A DNA stretch of 60,348 nucleotides, counting the filler, from Candidatus Zhuqueibacterota bacterium (lineage in GTDB: Bacteria; BS750m-G25), in NCBI GenBank assembly GCA_016783505.1. It is 5 parts of 5 records of this genome, joined end to end, with 100 filler letters (N's around TTAATTAATTAA, not from the genome) between each part and the next. Parts side by side here need not be neighbours in the genome. Positions count along the whole stretch, not along the records: positions 54,264 to 60,348 come from JADHWK010000084.1; 4 more parts are not named here. One strand, written 5' to 3'. The notes under the pieces are model-generated. The model had not been told where the DNA came from, ran no database searches, and worked only from the letters and a program-made list of their open reading frames with translations. Position numbers and translations under genes: made by a program. This document shows positions 8,176 to 60,348 of this stretch, one piece after another; the first letter of the stretch is position 1; every line of letters begins with the position of its first letter.

Positions 8176-8275
8176 NNNNNNNNNNNNNNNNNNNNNNNNN
8201 NNNNNNNNNNNNNNNNNNNTTAATTAATTAANNNNNNNNNNNNNNNNNNNNNNNNNNNNNNNNNNNNNNNNNNNN
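8176..8275. other. Assembly gap with artificial TTAATTAATTAA linker
   Basis: N-run with a central linker that reads as stop codons in all six frames. Confidence 0.97.
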
Positions 8276-16347: not shown

Positions 16348-16447
16348 NNNNNNNNNNNNNNNNNNNNNNNNNNNNNNNNNNNNNNNNNNNNTTAATTAAT
16401 TAANNNNNNNNNNNNNNNNNNNNNNNNNNNNNNNNNNNNNNNNNNNN
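16348..16447. other. Assembly gap with artificial linker
   Basis: N-run with TTAATTAATTAA. Confidence 0.97.
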
Positions 16448-46505: not shown

Positions 46506-46605
46506 NNNNNNNNNNNNNNNNNNNNNNNNNNNNNNNNNNNNNNNNNNNNTTAATTAATTAANNNNNNNNNNNNNNNNNNNNNNNNNNNNNNNNNNNNNNN
46601 NNNNN
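46506..46605. other. Assembly gap with artificial linker
   Basis: N-run with TTAATTAATTAA. Confidence 0.97.
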
Positions 46606-54163: not shown

Positions 54164-54263
54164 NNNNNNNNNNNNNNNNNNNNNNNNNNNNNNNNNNNNN
54201 NNNNNNNTTAATTAATTAANNNNNNNNNNNNNNNNNNNNNNNNNNNNNNNNNNNNNNNNNNNN
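54164..54263. other. Assembly gap with artificial linker
   Basis: N-run with TTAATTAATTAA. Confidence 0.97.
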
Positions 54264-54303
54264 CGCAGGATATAGCCCGTCCATCTTCATGCCTTTGTTA
54301 TGT
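54264..54303 (-). other. attC site, partial (cut by contig edge)
   Basis: R'' ACATAAC (54303-54297), 8 nt after the stop, followed by the start of an arm. Confidence 0.7.
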
Positions 54304-54311
54304 CATATGTT

Positions 54312-54788
54312 TCACAGTGTTGATTGGATCCTTGCTATTCTTTCTTCCAAATCAGCAATAAATTCGTCCGGTATCCTATCTTTTGCTAATTCATTAAAAT
54401 GCCGGGCTTCTTCAAACATTGTCTCATAACTGAGTTCTAAAGATTTCAACACATCCGTCCAAAATCTTTTACGTACGTCAGGTGGGTTACATGGACCATC
54501 CGCATCATTTTTGAATCGATCAGGTGCTATAACTAACAAGTCTTCATATGGAATCCCAAGTTTTTCCGCTTGATCCTTTAACAATTCCCGCCCTTCCCAA
54601 TTATCAAACCAGTGTTCACCATAGTCATTGTCCAGCGTGAACAGTCTCCCGATCCAGACCACAGGGTTCCATTCAATCAACCCAAGAATTTCAGAGATGC
54701 GTCGGTATTCATTTGTAACAAGAAAAGCATCAAGTTGATCAATATACTTGAACACTTTGACGGTTTTCATGCTAATTATCTGCCTCAT
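54312..54788 (-). CDS. Cassette-borne hypothetical protein
   Basis: 158 aa, Trp/acidic-rich (EWNPVVWIGR, DNDYGEHWFDNW); starts about 10 nt after R'. Confidence 0.8.
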   Translation of the reverse strand: MRQIISMKTVKVFKYIDQLDAFLVTNEYRRISEILGLIEWNPVVWIGRLFTLDNDYGEHWFDNWEGRELLKDQAEKLGIPYEDLLVIAPDRFKNDADGPCNPPDVRKRFWTDVLKSLELSYETMFEEARHFNELAKDRIPDEFIADLEERIARIQSTL

Positions 54789-54797
54789 CTGAGTTGG

Positions 54798-54859
54798 ACA
54801 TAACGTCTCTTTTCAGCGGGCGCGCTTTTTTGCGTTCCGCTGCAAAAGCATTGTTAGCC
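54798..54859 (-). other. attC site (62 bp)
   Basis: GGCTAAC-AATGC-TTTTGCAGCGG...CCGCTGAAAA-GAGAC-GTTATGT. Confidence 0.92.
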
Positions 54860-54862
54860 ATT

Positions 54863-55519
54863 TTAATATTGTGTAAAAGTCTCAACCCCACTACAAAATT
54901 GATATCTCATAAAATCACTAAACCCGGTCCATAAAAAATGCTGTGATGTATAGGCGCACTGGAAAATAGATGTTTTCTTTGCAAGTATGGCTGGGTTTAG
55001 AAAGGTGGACTCAATATGTTTGCCAACCTCTTTCTTCCGAGGATTTTGAACACCAGGGCATAGAAAATGCCAAATATTAAGACCATCCTTGCTTTTATTC
55101 TTAAAATAATCTCCTAAGATTTTGTGATTGATATGACCATATTCTCCATCAATGTTATGTGTAAAAATAATGTCAAAATTGTCAATACTGACTTTATTCA
55201 ATTTTTGAGTTACCTCAGAAATATTTATGTGGTTTTCATTTTGTGTGTCTACCATAATATTGATAAATTCATATTCTAACTTCAGATTATCTGATTGGAT
55301 CTTATATTCATAAACAGCTTTTTGTAGCTCAATTCCTCGGTCATCATTTTCTTTGTGAGTCGAAATGAATATCTTCCAATTCCAATCGCTTCTTGAGAGT
55401 ATGGTTCCCCCCATCCAGATAGTTTCATCATCAGGATGTGCCGAGAAAATCGCAGCTTTTATTGGCTTTATGTCACTACTTGGTATCAGGAAATTATGTT
55501 CTTCGTTATATTTCATCAT
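54863..55519 (-). CDS. PIG-L/LmbE family deacetylase (cassette)
   Basis: AHPDDE metal motif; THNIDGEYGHINH; YTSQ. Confidence 0.85.
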   Translation of the reverse strand: MMKYNEEHNFLIPSSDIKPIKAAIFSAHPDDETIWMGGTILSRSDWNWKIFISTHKENDDRGIELQKAVYEYKIQSDNLKLEYEFINIMVDTQNENHINISEVTQKLNKVSIDNFDIIFTHNIDGEYGHINHKILGDYFKNKSKDGLNIWHFLCPGVQNPRKKEVGKHIESTFLNPAILAKKTSIFQCAYTSQHFLWTGFSDFMRYQFCSGVETFTQY

Positions 55520-55559
55520 AGATTTTACCGATTATATCGCACAGTTTCTCGTTGCGGAT

Positions 55560-55631
55560 GGCTAACGACAGGATCACTTGCGGCTATGGAGCAACAGCGG
55601 AATAGCCGTCAAGTGCATCCATTGGTTGGGC
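55560..55631 (-). other. attC site (72 bp)
   Basis: GCCCAAC...GGATGCACTTGACGGCTAT...ATAGCCGCAAGTGATCC...GTTAGCC. Confidence 0.92.
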
Positions 55632-55653
55632 GAATTAAGTATTGTCCCCAGAA
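55632..55653. repeat. 22-bp inverted repeat, left copy
   Basis: gaattaagtattgtccccagaa; reverse complement matches 57807-57828 at 21/22 positions. Confidence 0.9.
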
Positions 55654-55755
55654 TTTAGGGATTGGATCATTTTCGGGAATCGCCTCCTGGAGAAAGACCT
55701 TCAGGGAATTCCAATTGCAACTGCTCGGGTCGGTGACAAGTTATCAATCATAACC

Positions 55756-56349
55756 TCATTTTTTAATAAACTCAACCAGTTCTGTATCCGTAGATATTTC
55801 CTTGATCATAGCCACGAGGGCCTGATTCAGCGAGCTCTTCCATCCTGCTAATCCACCGCCCGTAGTATATGCTCCTTCGTATGACTTCATAAAAACACCT
55901 TTTTCTGTGGGTATACAGCTAATCATTATTTTCACACCAGTATGAGCAGTTTGGTTAGTAGAAAAAAGGCGTTGCTGAACTCTATATGTAAAATCGTAGA
56001 TACTTCCTTCAACGATGAAATCTGCCTTAACATCCGACGAAATATTGACAAATTTGTGACCGTTTCTTTCCAATTCTTTTCTTATCTGATTGGCTACAAA
56101 CGTTGTTATCGGTTGATCTAATACCAATGTATGCGCACCCACTTGTGCCACTAAAGCTGGATCGTCAACATTTCTGACACGCTTAAATTCTTTGAAAGCA
56201 AAGGTTTTGGAAGGCACGCCACGCAATGGGCTACCCGTCTGCAATGTAGAGAAATCACTGGTTTTCAGAATATGGGTACATCCCGTAACTAATAAGATTG
56301 CGACCATTAATGATACGATACTATGTGGGTAACTGCTGCGACCTTTCAT
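55756..56349 (-). CDS. Lipoprotein (YajG-like, tentative), cassette gene
   Basis: Lipobox VTGC; RBS GGAGGTG. Confidence 0.75.
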   Translation of the reverse strand: MKGRSSYPHSIVSLMVAILLVTGCTHILKTSDFSTLQTGSPLRGVPSKTFAFKEFKRVRNVDDPALVAQVGAHTLVLDQPITTFVANQIRKELERNGHKFVNISSDVKADFIVEGSIYDFTYRVQQRLFSTNQTAHTGVKIMISCIPTEKGVFMKSYEGAYTTGGGLAGWKSSLNQALVAMIKEISTDTELVEFIKK

Positions 56350-56360
56350 TTTTCACCTCC

Positions 56361-57128
56361 TTACTTAAGATATACGAAATCATAAGCCAGGTTTTGCCCG
56401 GCCTTCTCTATGATCGCGTCGAGCTCTTTCAATCCGTTTTCTTTATAATAGTTAAGTGTATGTACTTCAGGAGATGACAGAACTTCCTCTCGGTCCCATA
56501 CTATTTTCCCTGAGCGCAGGTACGTCAATTGACCCTGCACGTGGATCTGGAGGCCAAAATTATCACCAGCAAGGTGAGTAAGGGAAATATTTTTGATGAC
56601 CAACCGGATTACGGCATTATAACCTGCGTCCGATAATTGGTGGTCGTCATTAATCTTGTTCTTTATATAGTCAACACGATCAAAGCACGAAGCCTTTCTG
56701 ATGGGTGTGGTAAAAGCTTGAACAATTTTATCTTCAATGCTGCTTATATCGATTTTGGTTCCTATTTCTTTAGCAGATGCACTGTCTGTGTGCGCCCTTT
56801 CTGCGGCAGTCCCAATAGCAACATAAGGCAATATAAGAAGAGGTGCGAGTACTGCAATCGCAAGACCTAGACCGGCTGCGCCCGTACCTTCCTGCGTGGC
56901 AGGAGTTACATCCAGGGCGTTGGCTGAAGCAAGAATTGCCACTTTTTTGATGCTCGAAAGGCTGTTGCTCGTCAGGTAAGTTTCTTTTGGAGGAGCCGAT
57001 GCGCAGGAAACAAGGAGCAATGCCATGCAGATACATAGACATCGGCGCAATCGCATTTTCATCAAGGCATTCATCCTGGGAACACGGGTTGAATCGTTAG
57101 CTTTAACTATAAACCAGATGAGCCTCAT
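56361..57128 (-). CDS. Lipoprotein with glycine-zipper-like segment, cassette gene
   Basis: Lipobox LVSC; GTGAAGLGLAIAV. True start may be downstream (MKMRLRR). Confidence 0.75.
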   Translation of the reverse strand: MRLIWFIVKANDSTRVPRMNALMKMRLRRCLCICMALLLVSCASAPPKETYLTSNSLSSIKKVAILASANALDVTPATQEGTGAAGLGLAIAVLAPLLILPYVAIGTAAERAHTDSASAKEIGTKIDISSIEDKIVQAFTTPIRKASCFDRVDYIKNKINDDHQLSDAGYNAVIRLVIKNISLTHLAGDNFGLQIHVQGQLTYLRSGKIVWDREEVLSSPEVHTLNYYKENGLKELDAIIEKAGQNLAYDFVYLK

Positions 57129-57190
57129 CTTTTTATCTCCCTTCTTTTATGTGATCCTTCCTCAATAGTTCAGATGCAGACTCCTCTGCA

Positions 57191-57730
57191 TTACTTGGCA
57201 CGTAAGTTTTGTGCTTGTTGATTGAGTTCATCGAGGAAGGCTTCAGTACGTGGAACTCCTTGGGGTTTGTTTTTATCAAGCATCACCGGTAATATTAGTA
57301 ATTTGCTTTTCCCTTTGATGAACCAACCATCGACATCACTGAATATAATAAAATCGCTATTACCAATAGGATAGGATGCCGGGTTGCCATTATGGCGCGC
57401 GACAGAAACAGAATCAAATATGCGTCGTTTGGCTATAGCATCTACATTGAATTGATAAGCATTTCGACTAACAGCGGTGAAGAAATCGATTTGTTCTTGG
57501 CTAACTCTGGTCCCGCTAAAAGCTTTGATCAAACGTTTCTGTATTTCAACGTCCGATGGGATAATAATCAGGGCTGCACCTCCCACAGGATTTTGATTAG
57601 GCTTTATCTCTTTGATAATGTTAGAATATATTTCTGTATTCTTTTGAAGTAGTTCGGAATGATTCAAACCGCAGGCAATTAAAAACATGAATGTTATAAC
57701 TATAAAAGTAACCAGAGTTAATCTTCTCAT
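57191..57730 (-). CDS. Hypothetical lipoprotein, cassette gene
   Basis: MRR + hydrophobic stretch + LIAC; RBS GGAGG. Confidence 0.78.
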   Translation of the reverse strand: MRRLTLVTFIVITFMFLIACGLNHSELLQKNTEIYSNIIKEIKPNQNPVGGAALIIIPSDVEIQKRLIKAFSGTRVSQEQIDFFTAVSRNAYQFNVDAIAKRRIFDSVSVARHNGNPASYPIGNSDFIIFSDVDGWFIKGKSKLLILPVMLDKNKPQGVPRTEAFLDELNQQAQNLRAK

Positions 57731-57806
57731 GGAGTCCCCTCCCTACTTTATGTTATCTCCTGTCGGGCTGGATGCCTATCAGCGGTTGGCCCCATAATAA
57801 GAATAG

Positions 57807-57828
57807 TTCTGGGGACAATACTCAATTC
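57807..57828. repeat. 22-bp inverted repeat, right copy
   Basis: ttctggggacaatactcaattc. Confidence 0.9.
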
Positions 57829-57842
57829 AACCATTTCTTTCG

Positions 57843-57933
57843 GCCCAACGACCTAAATCAGCGGCGGGGCTACGACATTTGCTGAAAATCGCACCGCGGC
57901 TTATTCCCCGTCCGCTGGATTTGCTTGTTAGGC
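57843..57933 (-). other. attC site (91 bp)
   Basis: GCCTAAC-AAGC-AAATCCAGCGGACGGGG...CCCCGCCGCTGATTT-AGGTC-GTTGGGC. Confidence 0.92.
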
Positions 57934-57956
57934 ATTTAATACTGTTCATTTGTCAA

Positions 57957-58003
57957 ATGTTAAGACTTGACACCAATCTCTTCTCATGTCAAGACCTGAC
58001 ACC
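57957..58003. repeat. 18-bp direct repeat pair next to attC
   Basis: atgttaagacttgacacc (57957-57974) and atgtcaagacctgacacc (57986-58003). Confidence 0.8.
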
Positions 58004-58056
58004 TTTTCCACCTTTATTGGTTATGCTTCCTGATTCATTCTTGTCTTGACAAAAAC

Positions 58057-58683
58057 TTACTTACTCGCGCTTAGAATCTGGTCATTCATTTTTTCCAAGG
58101 CATACACCAAGCTACCCCTGACTGATTCGATAAGTTCAAATTTCCCGGCGCTTCCGGCTTGGAAACCTCCCATAGCACCGCCGCCGCCACCACGATAACC
58201 GATCTCTTTAGAATATTGCCCAACAGATGATCCCTCCGTTAATACGGACCAATTCTTATCATATAATTTATAGACTAATTCTGTTGTGCTTGACCATTCT
58301 TTTACCGCAAGGGGGAAAATTTTTGTCGTCCTCAACTCAATGTCAGTCTTCTGACCAAATTCAATTGTAATGATTCTGTCAATATCTTGAGGTGCTTTGT
58401 TTTTATCTATAAAAAGAGAAACAGATGAAAAGACTTTTCCCAAAGATGCAACAGCTTCCGATTCAATAGCTTCACCTAGCAAAGCTTTATTAATACCTAC
58501 TCCCACAGGCATCATATAAGCCTTCGTTTTATCGCTGAGGTAGAGGCCTGCTTTAAGAGGTATTATTTCTGATCTGCCCGTATACGAAGCTAAGTCGCGC
58601 TTAATGACGTATCTTTCTCCCTGACAGCTCATTAAAAAAGTTAAAATCATTAACACTAATAAACCGATATTTTTTAGTTTCAT
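58057..58683 (-). CDS. Hypothetical lipoprotein, cassette gene
   Basis: MKLK + hydrophobic stretch + LMSC; RBS GAGGAGG. Confidence 0.78.
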   Translation of the reverse strand: MKLKNIGLLVLMILTFLMSCQGERYVIKRDLASYTGRSEIIPLKAGLYLSDKTKAYMMPVGVGINKALLGEAIESEAVASLGKVFSSVSLFIDKNKAPQDIDRIITIEFGQKTDIELRTTKIFPLAVKEWSSTTELVYKLYDKNWSVLTEGSSVGQYSKEIGYRGGGGGAMGGFQAGSAGKFELIESVRGSLVYALEKMNDQILSASK

Positions 58684-58741
58684 CGTCGCGTCCTCCTCAC
58701 CTTATTATTTCAAAGTAATTATGCAAAAATTAATCTTGCGG

Positions 58742-58804
58742 GCCTAACGCATAAGGTCAGCGGCGGGCAGCTTTTTGCCCGTCCGCTGTAGTGAGTTGTT
58801 AGGC
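58742..58804 (-). other. attC site (63 bp)
   Basis: GCCTAAC...CAGCGGACGGGCA-AAAAGC-TGCCCGCCGCTG...GTTAGGC. Confidence 0.92.
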
Positions 58805-58865
58805 AAAATAAATCTGTCCCCTTTTACGTTTTATAGATACAAGTCACAAAGAACAAATGATCGAT

Positions 58866-59516
58866 TTATTTTGACAAAACAGAAACATAATCATGCATAA
58901 AGTCATTCATCATTTCTGTTGCTAGGTTGTTACAGGCAATTTTGAGCATGACTTCATGAATTTGCTCCTGTGGAATTACACTCTTATCCTTCTCCTCACT
59001 CATTATAGTATGTTTTTTCTCCCAAATACTCTTTGAAGTTCTTGCATCAACGATTTTCAAATTTGCTGATGCAATAGCATAACCTTCCCAATTAGTATTG
59101 GCAAAACCTAGTGCTATGGGTGAGGTTACAATAAAGGCAGTAAAATAGGCTATAGCTATATTCCTATCACCTGCATTTGAACCAGCTACAAACTTGTCTA
59201 TTTCACCAGTGATAATATAATCAATACTTTCCTGTACTGATGAGTCGATATCTTCATTCACTGAACGATTATAAATAACCTGAAATCCCTTAGATCCTTC
59301 TAAGCATTCTTTAACCGTCTGCTTGAAACATTCCCCGCCTTGGTTCTTGAATCCTTTTATTAATACATTTTTTACTTTTGTAAATCCGCTCAGATATTTC
59401 CGTTCCGTTAATTTCGTCGTTGGTTGAAAATTCGTGGAACAACCATATAAAGAAATCAGGATTAAAATTATGAACAACCTTAAGTTTCTCAAATACTTAT
59501 AATTATTCACATTCAT
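58866..59516 (-). CDS. Lipoprotein (CsgG/LpoB/DUF799-like fold, tentative), cassette gene
   Basis: Lipobox LYGC; DYIITGEI...LKIVDARTSKSIW. Confidence 0.72.
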   Translation of the reverse strand: MNVNNYKYLRNLRLFIILILISLYGCSTNFQPTTKLTERKYLSGFTKVKNVLIKGFKNQGGECFKQTVKECLEGSKGFQVIYNRSVNEDIDSSVQESIDYIITGEIDKFVAGSNAGDRNIAIAYFTAFIVTSPIALGFANTNWEGYAIASANLKIVDARTSKSIWEKKHTIMSEEKDKSVIPQEQIHEVMLKIACNNLATEMMNDFMHDYVSVLSK

Positions 59517-59541
59517 ATATCCACCAGTTGTTAATCCTATA

Positions 59542-60195
59542 TTATTGTGCCTTCTCTATCTTTCCACCAGTCGAAATACGTTTCATAAATGAAGCTTGAC
59601 CTTCCGCAATCAGATTTAGAAAGTTTATTAGAAAATCTTTACTATCGCCACCGAATCCGCCCATAAATCCGACACGTCTATCAGATGATTTATAAAGGAT
59701 CTTTTTTGTTTCTGGTGCTCGGATATCTATTTCAACTTGAGCCTTTGCTGCTCCTGCACCAAAACCGACAAAATATCTTAATGCTCTATTACCAGGTTCT
59801 AATTCTGAAAGAGATGACTCCAAAACAAGGGTTTTTCCAGTCTGCTTATTAGGGTCTGAAATAGCAGCGGTGTCATCAGTAACTTTAGTAAATAATCCGG
59901 TATTATTCATATTTTTGATTAATTGCTTTATAAAATAAATATTTAGCTCTTCAAGATCAATATCAGTTTTTGGTATATTTGGCGAAATAGGTAAGCCAGA
60001 TATGATTAAAGTTTCATACCCTTTAAAATCAAAACCTGGGGATAAATATACCATCCCAGCATCTTTATCTTCTATCATCTGAAAATCTTTATGAGAAATA
60101 TTTTCTACGGGAGTCATTCTATGAGCACCACAACCAATAAGTGACAACAACAATAAAGCTAAAACAATCTTTTTCATTTTCATTCTCCTTTTCAT
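59542..60195 (-). CDS. DUF4410/DUF3313-like lipoprotein, cassette gene
   Basis: Lipobox LIGC; PGNRALRYFVGFGAGAA. Start may be 60183 or 60177. Confidence 0.8.
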   Translation of the reverse strand: MKRRMKMKKIVLALLLLSLIGCGAHRMTPVENISHKDFQMIEDKDAGMVYLSPGFDFKGYETLIISGLPISPNIPKTDIDLEELNIYFIKQLIKNMNNTGLFTKVTDDTAAISDPNKQTGKTLVLESSLSELEPGNRALRYFVGFGAGAAKAQVEIDIRAPETKKILYKSSDRRVGFMGGFGGDSKDFLINFLNLIAEGQASFMKRISTGGKIEKAQ

Positions 60196-60205
60196 TTTTA
60201 TTAGG

Positions 60206-60333
60206 GCCTAACGGGCAGCGAGATGAGCCGCCGTCGGTTGGGGGCGGAAATTGCATGCTAATGCAATTTTCCGTGCCAACCGACCGAGCGGAGCGAAGCC
60301 CGGAGGGGGTCGGCTCGATTGAGTTTGATAGGC
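60206..60333 (-). other. attC site (128 bp) with non-canonical R''
   Basis: GCCTATC...GAGCCG...GTCGGTTGG...CCAACCGAC-GGCGGCTC...GTTAGGC. Confidence 0.75.
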
Positions 60334-60348
60334 GGAGCGCCTTTGGCG

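Follow-up and report, generated by a model that had tools for sequence, protein, structure and literature searches.

Three different short motifs lie beside the R'' boxes of attC recombination sites in three consecutive integron cassettes of a Candidatus Zhuqueibacterota bacterium (GenBank assembly GCA_016783505.1), and these motifs, designated here as M1, M2 and M3, are probably the terminal inverted repeats (TIRs) of three TIRtron families, carried at the 3' ends of the cassettes as transposase-less relics or miniatures. The stretch of DNA analysed (60,348 nucleotides, hereafter referred to as the window) includes the cassettes in its last part, 54264-60348 (JADHWK010000084.1), which is a separate contig of 6085 nt (G000:C39, hereafter C39) discontinuous with the rest of the window. 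TIRtrons comprise genes resembling REP-associated tyrosine transposases (RAYT) of the Y1 type, termed TIRYT, flanked by TIRs of the form GGGGWSAS (Di Nocera, De Gregorio & Rocco 2013, PMC3733652), and TIRYT is placed in subclass 2.1 of TnpA-Y1 (Quentin et al. 2018, PMC6006769).

The comparisons described below establish what the motifs are, how they are oriented and arranged, that a cassette boundary is mobile and that a full TIRtron is present in a cassette elsewhere. Full elements consist of a RAYT-like Y1 (HUH) gene, the TIRYT, between inverted repeats of the GGGGWSAS type, and all the copies upstream of R'' on C39 stand in the orientation of the left end, with the GGGG distal and the gene-facing side toward attC.

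Motifs beside R'' boxes and their relatives at transposase genes

The integron cassette array of C39 reads on the minus strand, as does every long open reading frame (ORF), and includes six attC sites. M1 (seen on the plus strand as GAATTAAGTATTGTCCCC, 55632-55649; as a left-end-type TIR on the minus strand, TTCTGGGGACAATACTTAATTC, 55632-55653) stands 0 nt before the R'' box (GCCCAAC, 55625-55631) of attC A2 (55560-55631, minus strand; 56.5 bits), the site of cassette c3, and matches the TIRs of the loci L016 and L024. Two tandem left-end-oriented TIRs, M2a and M2b (minus strand, GGTGTCAGGTCTTGACAT, 11 nt, GGTGTCAAGTCTTAACAT; 57957-57974 and 57986-58003), are associated with attC A3 (57843-57933, minus strand; R'' 57927-57933; 67 bits), the site of cassette c2, M2a being 23 nt from R''. 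M3, a left-end-oriented TIR-type motif (minus strand, AAAAGGGGACAGATTTATTTT, 58805-58825), is located 0 nt before the R'' box (58798-58804) of attC A4 (58742-58804, minus strand; 79.5 bits), the site of cassette c1. Part of the M2 core recurs in inverted form over 9 nt (GTCTTGACA, 58043-58051) next to the stop codon, which may just mirror the internal dyad of M2.

Scripted string location reproduced all the motif coordinates and the distances to R'' (0, 23 and 0 nt) given in an earlier note on this DNA, and its comparison of stop-to-R'' gaps was likewise confirmed (124, 123 and 61 nt in the cassettes with motifs versus 3 and 8 nt in the two without). As it had also reported, the CCCC/CACC ends seen on the plus strand all point away from attC, with a single orientation in four of the four copies upstream of R'' on C39. 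On the cassette strand each of these copies runs GGGG...AATT toward attC, which is the left-end orientation of a TIRtron; the AATT side of a TIRtron left end faces the transposase gene, and here it faces attC.

An exact scan of metagenome contigs with the M1 pattern detected five stretches on four contigs. At L016, a 222-amino acid (aa) Y1_Tnp/RAYT-like ORF lies between inverted copies of M1, the downstream copy overlapping the stop codon, and its product matches PF01797 at 48.6 bits (cut-off 23), the best NCBIfam match being NF047646 (REP-associated tyrosine transposase), whose cut-off of 80 bits is narrowly missed at 75.4. The gene at L024 is flanked by inverted M1 in the same arrangement. 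The L016 protein has at least 8000 homologues, and a profile built from 24 of them identified 589 relatives in species-representative genomes, from which 80 loci were kept, 77 of them having no less than 100 nt of sequence on each side. Repeats of the GGG(G/T)AC type were present within 130 nt upstream of the gene at 62 of the 77 loci, downstream at 53 and on both sides at 43, with the family consensus GGAATTCCGGGGACACCATACTTAATT and the outer G at a median of 53 nt before the protein match; the TIR core occurs in 6.7% of random 130-nt windows from the same loci. M1 equals this consensus minus 2 nt and was missed by an ungapped weight matrix. M1 and M3 were therefore compared with the family by the edit distance of the tail following a GGGGAC anchor, using 49 family tails and 1869 genomic GGGGAC sites; the tail of M1 is at distance 2 from the nearest family tail, and none of the 1869 genomic sites is as close. 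M1 can thus be assigned with high confidence as the end repeat of a TIRtron/TIRYT element.

The outer GGGG end of the TIRs was observed to stutter, in the form of runs of partial tandem copies (such as AAATTCTGG / AATTCTGGGGACA) before full TIRs, up to about ten of them in L207 (G050:C321). Stuttering ends occur also in L128 (G041:C27), L130 and L024 (3193-3210) and hint at repeated cutting and joining at that end.

A search for relatives of the M2 gap in this genome and in the loci gathered before the wider genome search gave no significant match. In the wider search, covering 401 genomes of the phylum of the Desulfobacterales metagenome-assembled genome (MAG) G041, a pattern for the M2 family, GG(G/T)GTCA(G/A)GTCTTGA(C/A)AT, was found in 138 genomes, with up to 39 copies per genome versus 0-2 for a reversed-pattern control. 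Pairs in inverted orientation, separated by 40-220 nt, occur frequently, and M2b occurs exactly in G439 and G388. Among 27 Y1_Tnp loci from five multi-copy genomes (one row, the second piece of the same gene, having been dropped), five have the repeat in forward orientation 48-85 nt upstream of the gene and in reverse orientation beyond it, and two have it upstream only. The 281-aa protein of locus L174, which has M2-type flanks, matches NF047646 at 82.3 bits, above the cut-off of 80. M2 is, with high confidence, a TIRtron end of a family other than that of M1. In L174 the left TIR of the TIRYT gene (1419-1436) was seen to overlap the last codons and the stop of an upstream methyltransferase-like gene.

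The exact 21-mer of M3 occurs about 20 nt before an attC site in G041, and in G047 M3 heads two copies of a unit of about 145 nt resembling a miniature inverted-repeat transposable element, a TIR dimer that ends in an inverted related arm. A truncated Y1 gene has a close variant of M3 68 nt upstream. The tail of M3 itself differs from the family tails by an edit distance of 3, a level reached by 2.3% of the 1869 genomic GGGGAC sites. Descent of M3 from a coding 3' end, suggested by its overlap with the end of a 39-aa ORF at L115, was considered and rejected, the identity forming a sharp 21-nt block within unrelated flanks. M3 is assigned with fair confidence as a TIRtron end of a further family, and is the weakest of the three assignments. 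The fit to GGGGWSAS is 8/8 for M3 (GGGGACAG), 7/8 for M1 (GGGGACAA) and M2b (GGTGTCAG) and 6/8 for M2a; GGGGTCAG, the form that prevails in the M2 family, reaches 8/8.

The proposal of the earlier note that such motifs end Y1/HUH transposase genes is thus borne out by M1 (L016, L024 and the 62 upstream and 53 downstream repeats at 77 loci) and by the M2 family at 5 of 27 loci; for M3, a near relative lies upstream of a Y1 gene fragment. Its description of the motifs as REP-like (resembling repetitive extragenic palindromic sequences) did not survive. There is no hairpin, the folding of the three gaps being no better than that of shuffled sequences (z from -1.08 to +1.73); a search of the MAG to which C39 belongs, G000, allowing up to three mismatches, gave two copies for M1, the tandem pair only for M2 and one copy for M3; and the three Y1_Tnp genes of G000 carry unrelated, GC-rich flanks of the hairpin type.

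The same tests bear on the reading of the motifs as regulatory or structural signals of the cassettes, such as operators, promoters of the next cassette or terminators. As imperfect dyads (TGTYAAG-W-CYTGACA) with a spacing of 29 nt, the M2 units resemble operators. However, promoter-like sites (18 versus 18.1 +/- 3.7 expected) and terminator-like sites (2 versus 4.9 +/- 2.5) are at or under the shuffle level, the gaps are unfolded, Rfam has no match for the region at E-values up to 10, and identical motifs flank transposase genes elsewhere, which leaves a regulatory role hardly credible.

Matched ends around the attC site of cassette c3

In c3, M1 has a partner at the opposite boundary of the cassette. 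A right-end-type TIR (GAATTGAGTATTGTCCCCAGAA, 57807-57828, minus strand) aligns with its counterparts at L016, L020 (two copies) and L024, and between it and the R' core of attC A3 (57843-57849), which forms the 5' boundary of c3, 14 nt are left over from the 3' terminus of a TIRYT frame (57829-57842, minus strand). In the alignment of this remnant, C39 and L017 read CGAAAGAAATGGTTGA, and L016, L020 and L024 read the last codons ...GAAAAAGAGAYATGGMTGA. M1 and its partner form 27-nt arms, 89% complementary and 2153 nt apart, which in the array enclose three genes; their alignment score is 20, versus 7.0 +/- 1.5 (maximum 12) for shuffled sequences, and the other three cassettes remain at the shuffle level. 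Since the partner in c3 is a right end with the gene tail after the R' core, attC lies inside both ends.

The predicted order in the c3 circle is the left end, attC (72 nt), the tail (14 nt) and the right end, with 86 nt between the arms. TIR dimers with spacers of 18-157 nt were found in five related loci, and the layout of the c3 circle is this known dimer layout with attC as the spacer. The computed fold of the circle junction reaches -40.8 kcal/mol, compared with -22.6 for attC alone and -27.4 +/- 2.0 with a shuffled 5' flank; the other cassettes gain 2.5-6.8 kcal/mol in the same junction fold. In single-stranded c3, the arms would extend the attC stem by 22 bp. No target-site duplication was seen at the outer ends of the M1 arms on reading the sequence.

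The metagenome locus L017 contains a copy of c3 that is 89.6% identical, with the same 5' end through the R' core, followed by a different attC and a different cassette. As the upstream attC differs in L017, the 5' end of c3 is a genuine cassette boundary, and the cassette carries the right end with it. At the other end, 55670-55739 is 94% identical in L017 and the homology stops at 55670, beyond which L017 continues with a left end of variant sequence (GGGGACGTATT...); 61 nt farther along, an ATG begins MPRKSRIDAPGAMHHII, which aligns over 16 residues with the N-terminus of the L016 protein at 56% identity. On the aligned sequences, a transposase gene in L017 occupies the place that M1 and attC take in C39. 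Capture through a secondary site, with TTGGGC at the 5' boundary of c3 contributed by the transposase tail, was also considered and is less likely, because TTGGGC is exactly complementary to the R'' box of c3 itself. Within the 5' leader of c3 (57731-57806), GGCCAACCGCTGATAGGC is similar to the 3' half of the attC type found locally (CCGCTGA...TAGGC) and might be what is left of an earlier attC.

Integron integrases and Y1 transposases both work on folded single-stranded DNA (ssDNA), and the crossover of the integron integrase (IntI) takes place in R', at G|TT. Because IntI exchanges strands in R', the junctions on the R'' side are not IntI products, and with IntI excluded the layout of c3 needs a transposase-linked event or the deletion of a transposase gene between the left end and attC. 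The left end of c3 abuts R'', and the right end, with about 14 nt of the transposase frame, follows the R' core at the 5' boundary, so that the arms bracket three genes in the array form and would bracket attC in the circle form, which has the layout of a TIR dimer or of a mini-TIRtron in which attC replaces the gene. Insertion, end-joining or deletion driven by TIRYT at the TIR ends may have made the TIR-attC junctions, as suggested by the action of both systems on folded ssDNA, and the favoured reading is that TIRtron relics, or a mini-TIRtron, became joined to attC through events linked to ssDNA processing.

Terminal inverted repeats and attC sites in other genomes

Motifs were counted within 60 nt of 18 attC sites of G000 and of 52 sites of G041, the latter remaining from 57 rows after removal of two reverse-strand duplicates and the three weakest. 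A forward copy is present upstream of 3 of the 18 sites in G000, all on C39, and a reverse copy at none of the 18; this is an excess over the Poisson expectation (3 versus 0.46), indicative only, as the relaxed pattern was shaped on the motifs themselves. None of the 12 sites on other G000 contigs carries a motif within this distance, and in the integron-rich G041 a motif stands beside one of the 52. A general enrichment at attC is not supported by these counts, nor is the repeated targeting of attC proposed in the earlier note, and the position of attC on the inner, transposase-gene side of the ends argues against a simple insertion beside attC; the building of the attC boundary by a transposase is a possibility. 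Of the earlier interpretation as a whole, the Y1/HUH identity of the motifs and their orientation bias on C39 therefore hold, and the REP-like character and repeated targeting do not.

The scarcity of motifs at these attC sites is what would be expected of passive hitch-hiking, wherein TIR repeats at gene ends are captured along with cassette genes and appear close to attC for the reason that cassettes have little other non-coding DNA. The TIR families are scattered, for the most part at a distance from attC, the TIR lying over the stop codon of the upstream gene in L174 occupies a typical gene-end position, and the motifs are confined to the three cassettes with long gaps. This explanation is nevertheless unlikely, as TIRs stand at 0 nt from R'' twice (c3 and c1); a single orientation is shared by the four copies upstream of R'', the M3 copy in G041 and a four-copy unit of G041 described below; the right end of c3, with its frame tail, adjoins the R' core, placing attC and not the genes inside both ends; and five of nine TIR copies in G041 are within about 1 kb of attC, although arrays are estimated to make up a few percent of the genome.

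G041 also harbours a full TIRtron inside a cassette (L024), whose gene, with 92% identity, is the nearest genomic relative of that at L016 and lies between two attC sites, 338 and about 198 nt off. In this genome, with 51 attC matches, the nine TIR copies were identified at up to two mismatches, the five noted above being those within about 1 kb of an attC match, and two further Y1 genes occur near arrays. A unit of about 125 nt is present in four copies (L129, L130, L131 and L132, on the G041 contigs C85, C18, C21 and C44, respectively) and consists of a left TIR, 62 conserved nt and GCCTAAC-N11-TTTAGGC, an R''/R'-type palindrome lacking an inner stem. In the copy on C44, a longer attC-like stem was observed in place of the palindrome, and in three of the four copies an R''-like YYAAC box lies 14-40 nt before the TIR. 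Separately, the string GGGGAGAATGCGGCAGTT was found 13-17 nt after R' at five attC sites of G041 (L105, L108, L116, L119 and L121), as a shared 5' leader of cassettes.

A more far-reaching alternative is a portable attC, that is, a mini-TIRtron carrying attC, moved in trans by TIRYT, which would seed attC beside ordinary genes; recombination by IntI between two such sites would then free the genes as a new cassette, with the right end at its 5' start and the left end and attC at its 3' end. The layout of c3 (right end, three genes, left end, attC) is exactly as this predicts, TIR dimers of such geometry exist, a left TIR is joined to a palindrome resembling R''/R' in the four-copy unit of G041, and the R''-side junction is beyond IntI. 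Yet a search of the 401 genomes for a second copy of the unit formed by the left end, attC A2 and the right end found none; sites similar to A2 occur in many of these genomes, and a search for the left end together with attC A2 showed A2-like sites and TIRs in 53 of them, never together, so that the two match separately. Two matches in G058 that extend a few bases across the junction of the left end and A2 were discarded, being TIRs joined to unrelated DNA in which the attC model finds no site. Moreover, c1 and c2 have a left end only, mobilisation by TIRYT would have to be assumed, and the G041 palindrome has no attC inner stem and scores at most 12 bits with the model. The portable attC is accordingly considered very unlikely.

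Several observations weigh against the favoured assignment of the motifs as TIRtron relics or miniatures at cassette ends. In addition to the motif-free sites on the other contigs of G000, the single motif among 52 sites of G041 and the absence of a second copy of the c3 unit from the 401 genomes, most TIR copies in other genomes are away from attC. M1 and M2 match GGGGWSAS only at 7/8 positions (M2a at 6/8), as given above, and no close TIRYT gene was found in this approximately 60% complete MAG, the best match to the M1-type profile scoring 51.8 bits (contig C62). No complete Y1 gene flanked by M3 was found, and an exact 17-mer of M3 lies inside an ORF resembling dTDP-glucose dehydratase (L124 1501-1517, G041:C9; ...NNGDRFIFWYG...), so that part of M3 can arise other than as a TIR, within an ordinary reading frame. 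L017 ends 17 codons into the transposase gene, so that either 3' state of c3 may be the older one, and the 6-kb contig C39 may be mis-binned. With these points taken into account, the origin of M1, M2 and M3 as ends of three TIRtron families remains the probable one.

Array context, known elements and significance

The source MAG, G000, comprises 2.5 Mb in 89 contigs. The window is composed of five contigs (C20, C21, C22, C25 and C39) joined by N44-TTAATTAATTAA-N44 linkers at 8176-8275, 16348-16447, 46506-46605 and 54164-54263, and a 50-nt probe of the C25 piece is present on C41 as well, which indicates that the MAG may contain redundant contigs. Two metagenome loci, L018 and L019, represent a longer assembly of C39; L019 (7089 nt) extends about 1.09 kb past window position 54264 (L019 4351-5478) and, beyond attC A0, contains a GC-rich gene whose product begins, as judged by eye, like a P-loop ATPase. 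A search of 40 genomes of the same domain gave only one match, of 58 nt, in one genome.

Five cassettes were recognised on C39: c1 with two genes and attC A4, c2 with one gene and A3, c3 with three genes and A2, c4 with one PIG-L-like gene (54863-55519), a 3-nt gap, no motif and A1, and c5 with one gene and A0. The three ORFs of c3 (55756-56349, 56361-57128 and 57191-57730, minus strand) are lipoprotein-like on the basis of ORF calls and Pfam, and the remainder of the 124-nt gap of this cassette is a 3' untranslated stretch (55654-55755, minus strand). Lipoprotein_16 on the first of these ORFs is above the Pfam cut-off. Lipoprotein-like products are encoded in several cassettes, with DUF4410 above the Pfam cut-off and a GNA1162-like match below it (17.4 versus 25.9 bits). 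The ORF list holds no transposase-sized extra ORF between cassette genes and attC, and Pfam names no transposase among the eight cassette proteins.

The remaining attC sites, all on the minus strand, are A0 (54264-54303; R'' box 54297-54303), which is cut by the contig end and is present as a full 129-nt site at L019 4351-4479; A1 (54798-54859), supported by its fold and by the covariance model at 58 bits; and A5 (60206-60333; 128 nt), the upstream end of the array on the contig, at 11.6 bits, long sites scoring poorly with the model. The C39 sites follow the genes of their cassettes, and their folds have the paired R''/R' boxes (RYYYAAC/GTTRRRY) and the imperfect inner stem with bulged bases that characterise attC. 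The covariance model was built from eight attC sites of similar length, a five-site MAFFT alignment of unequal lengths having proved poor; it scores A1-A4 at 56-80 bits and recovers nine non-training sites on other contigs of the same genome. Scanning with paired AAC...GTT boxes and folding was dropped after it gave 1077 matches and missed three true sites, and fuzzy half-site patterns were used as leads only. Twelve attC-like sites, single or paired, were noticed on ten other contigs (C2, C13, C17, C31, C44, C53, C72, C73, C77 and C84). No integron integrase above the cut-off was found in the MAG, the best match scoring 86.7 bits against 265; gene fragments resembling integron integrases, all under the family cut-off, lie on C44 (2911-3190) and C82.

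The motifs on C39 share with TIRtrons the inverted GGGGWSAS repeats found by RAYT-like Y1 genes, which may overlap gene ends and occur as dispersed singles and dimers, and M1-M3 match such repeats in sequence and, M3 through a near relative, in position with respect to Y1 genes of other genomes. They differ from TIRtrons in their location in integron cassettes, facing attC and without a transposase gene, and in the pair of c3 that encloses attC in the circle. With REP sequences, their paired form (REPIN) and RAYT they have in common the transposase superfamily, the best NCBIfam family being the REP-associated tyrosine transposase, and inverted doublets that can fold into one hairpin; unlike these, neither M1 nor M3 is palindromic, a GTAG/CGTC tag is missing, and there are 2, 2 and 1 genome copies rather than tens to hundreds. 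The ends of IS200/IS605 elements are subterminal hairpins without inverted repeats, served by a TnpA of about 130-160 aa, whereas inverted repeats without hairpins are seen here, and the motif-associated proteins of 222 and 281 aa match NF033573 at 16.9 and 16.7 bits, respectively (cut-off 55).

IS1111-attC elements and group IIC-attC introns are known attC-targeting elements that are inserted within attC. Like them, the ends described here belong to mobile elements at attC in a fixed orientation; unlike them, these ends flank an intact attC from outside, whereas the known elements carry their own DDE transposase or intron RNA. In Halorhodospira halochloris, an IS200/IS605 element lies beside a cluster of attC sites lacking an integron integrase (CALIN), and its authors comment on how elements requiring ssDNA cluster (PMC7923331). 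That case is similar in that a single-strand transposon of the Y1/HUH type adjoins an attC cluster, and differs in being a complete insertion sequence with hairpin ends after the last attC, not TIR ends fused to attC.

The word 'integron' is absent from the texts of PMC3733652 and PMC6006769, whose supplementary files may list TIRs relevant to M2 and M3. Among the matches listed in the literature search, no publication was found that connects attC with the repeats of TIRYT or RAYT; in the listed papers that mention both attC and RAYT, attC looked to be a sequence string or part of a comparison. How cassettes acquire attC is, to our knowledge, an old open question. The passage of PMC8352920 concerned with it mentions a 'native mechanism of cassette genesis' and names none.

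The array on C39 presents ends of Y1 elements joined base-to-base to attC boundaries, with one polarity, in three cassettes in a row, and in c3 attC is placed precisely where the parent element has its transposase gene. On the modest reading, in which TIRtron relics colonise cassette ends, TIRtrons would constitute a third class of ssDNA elements in cassette arrays, after IS1111-attC elements and group IIC-attC introns. The L024 TIRYT gene, the TIRs and attC A2 provide concrete substrates for testing. If the portable attC were true, recombination sites would be planted beside ordinary genes, giving rise to new cassettes, and c3 would have been born in this manner.

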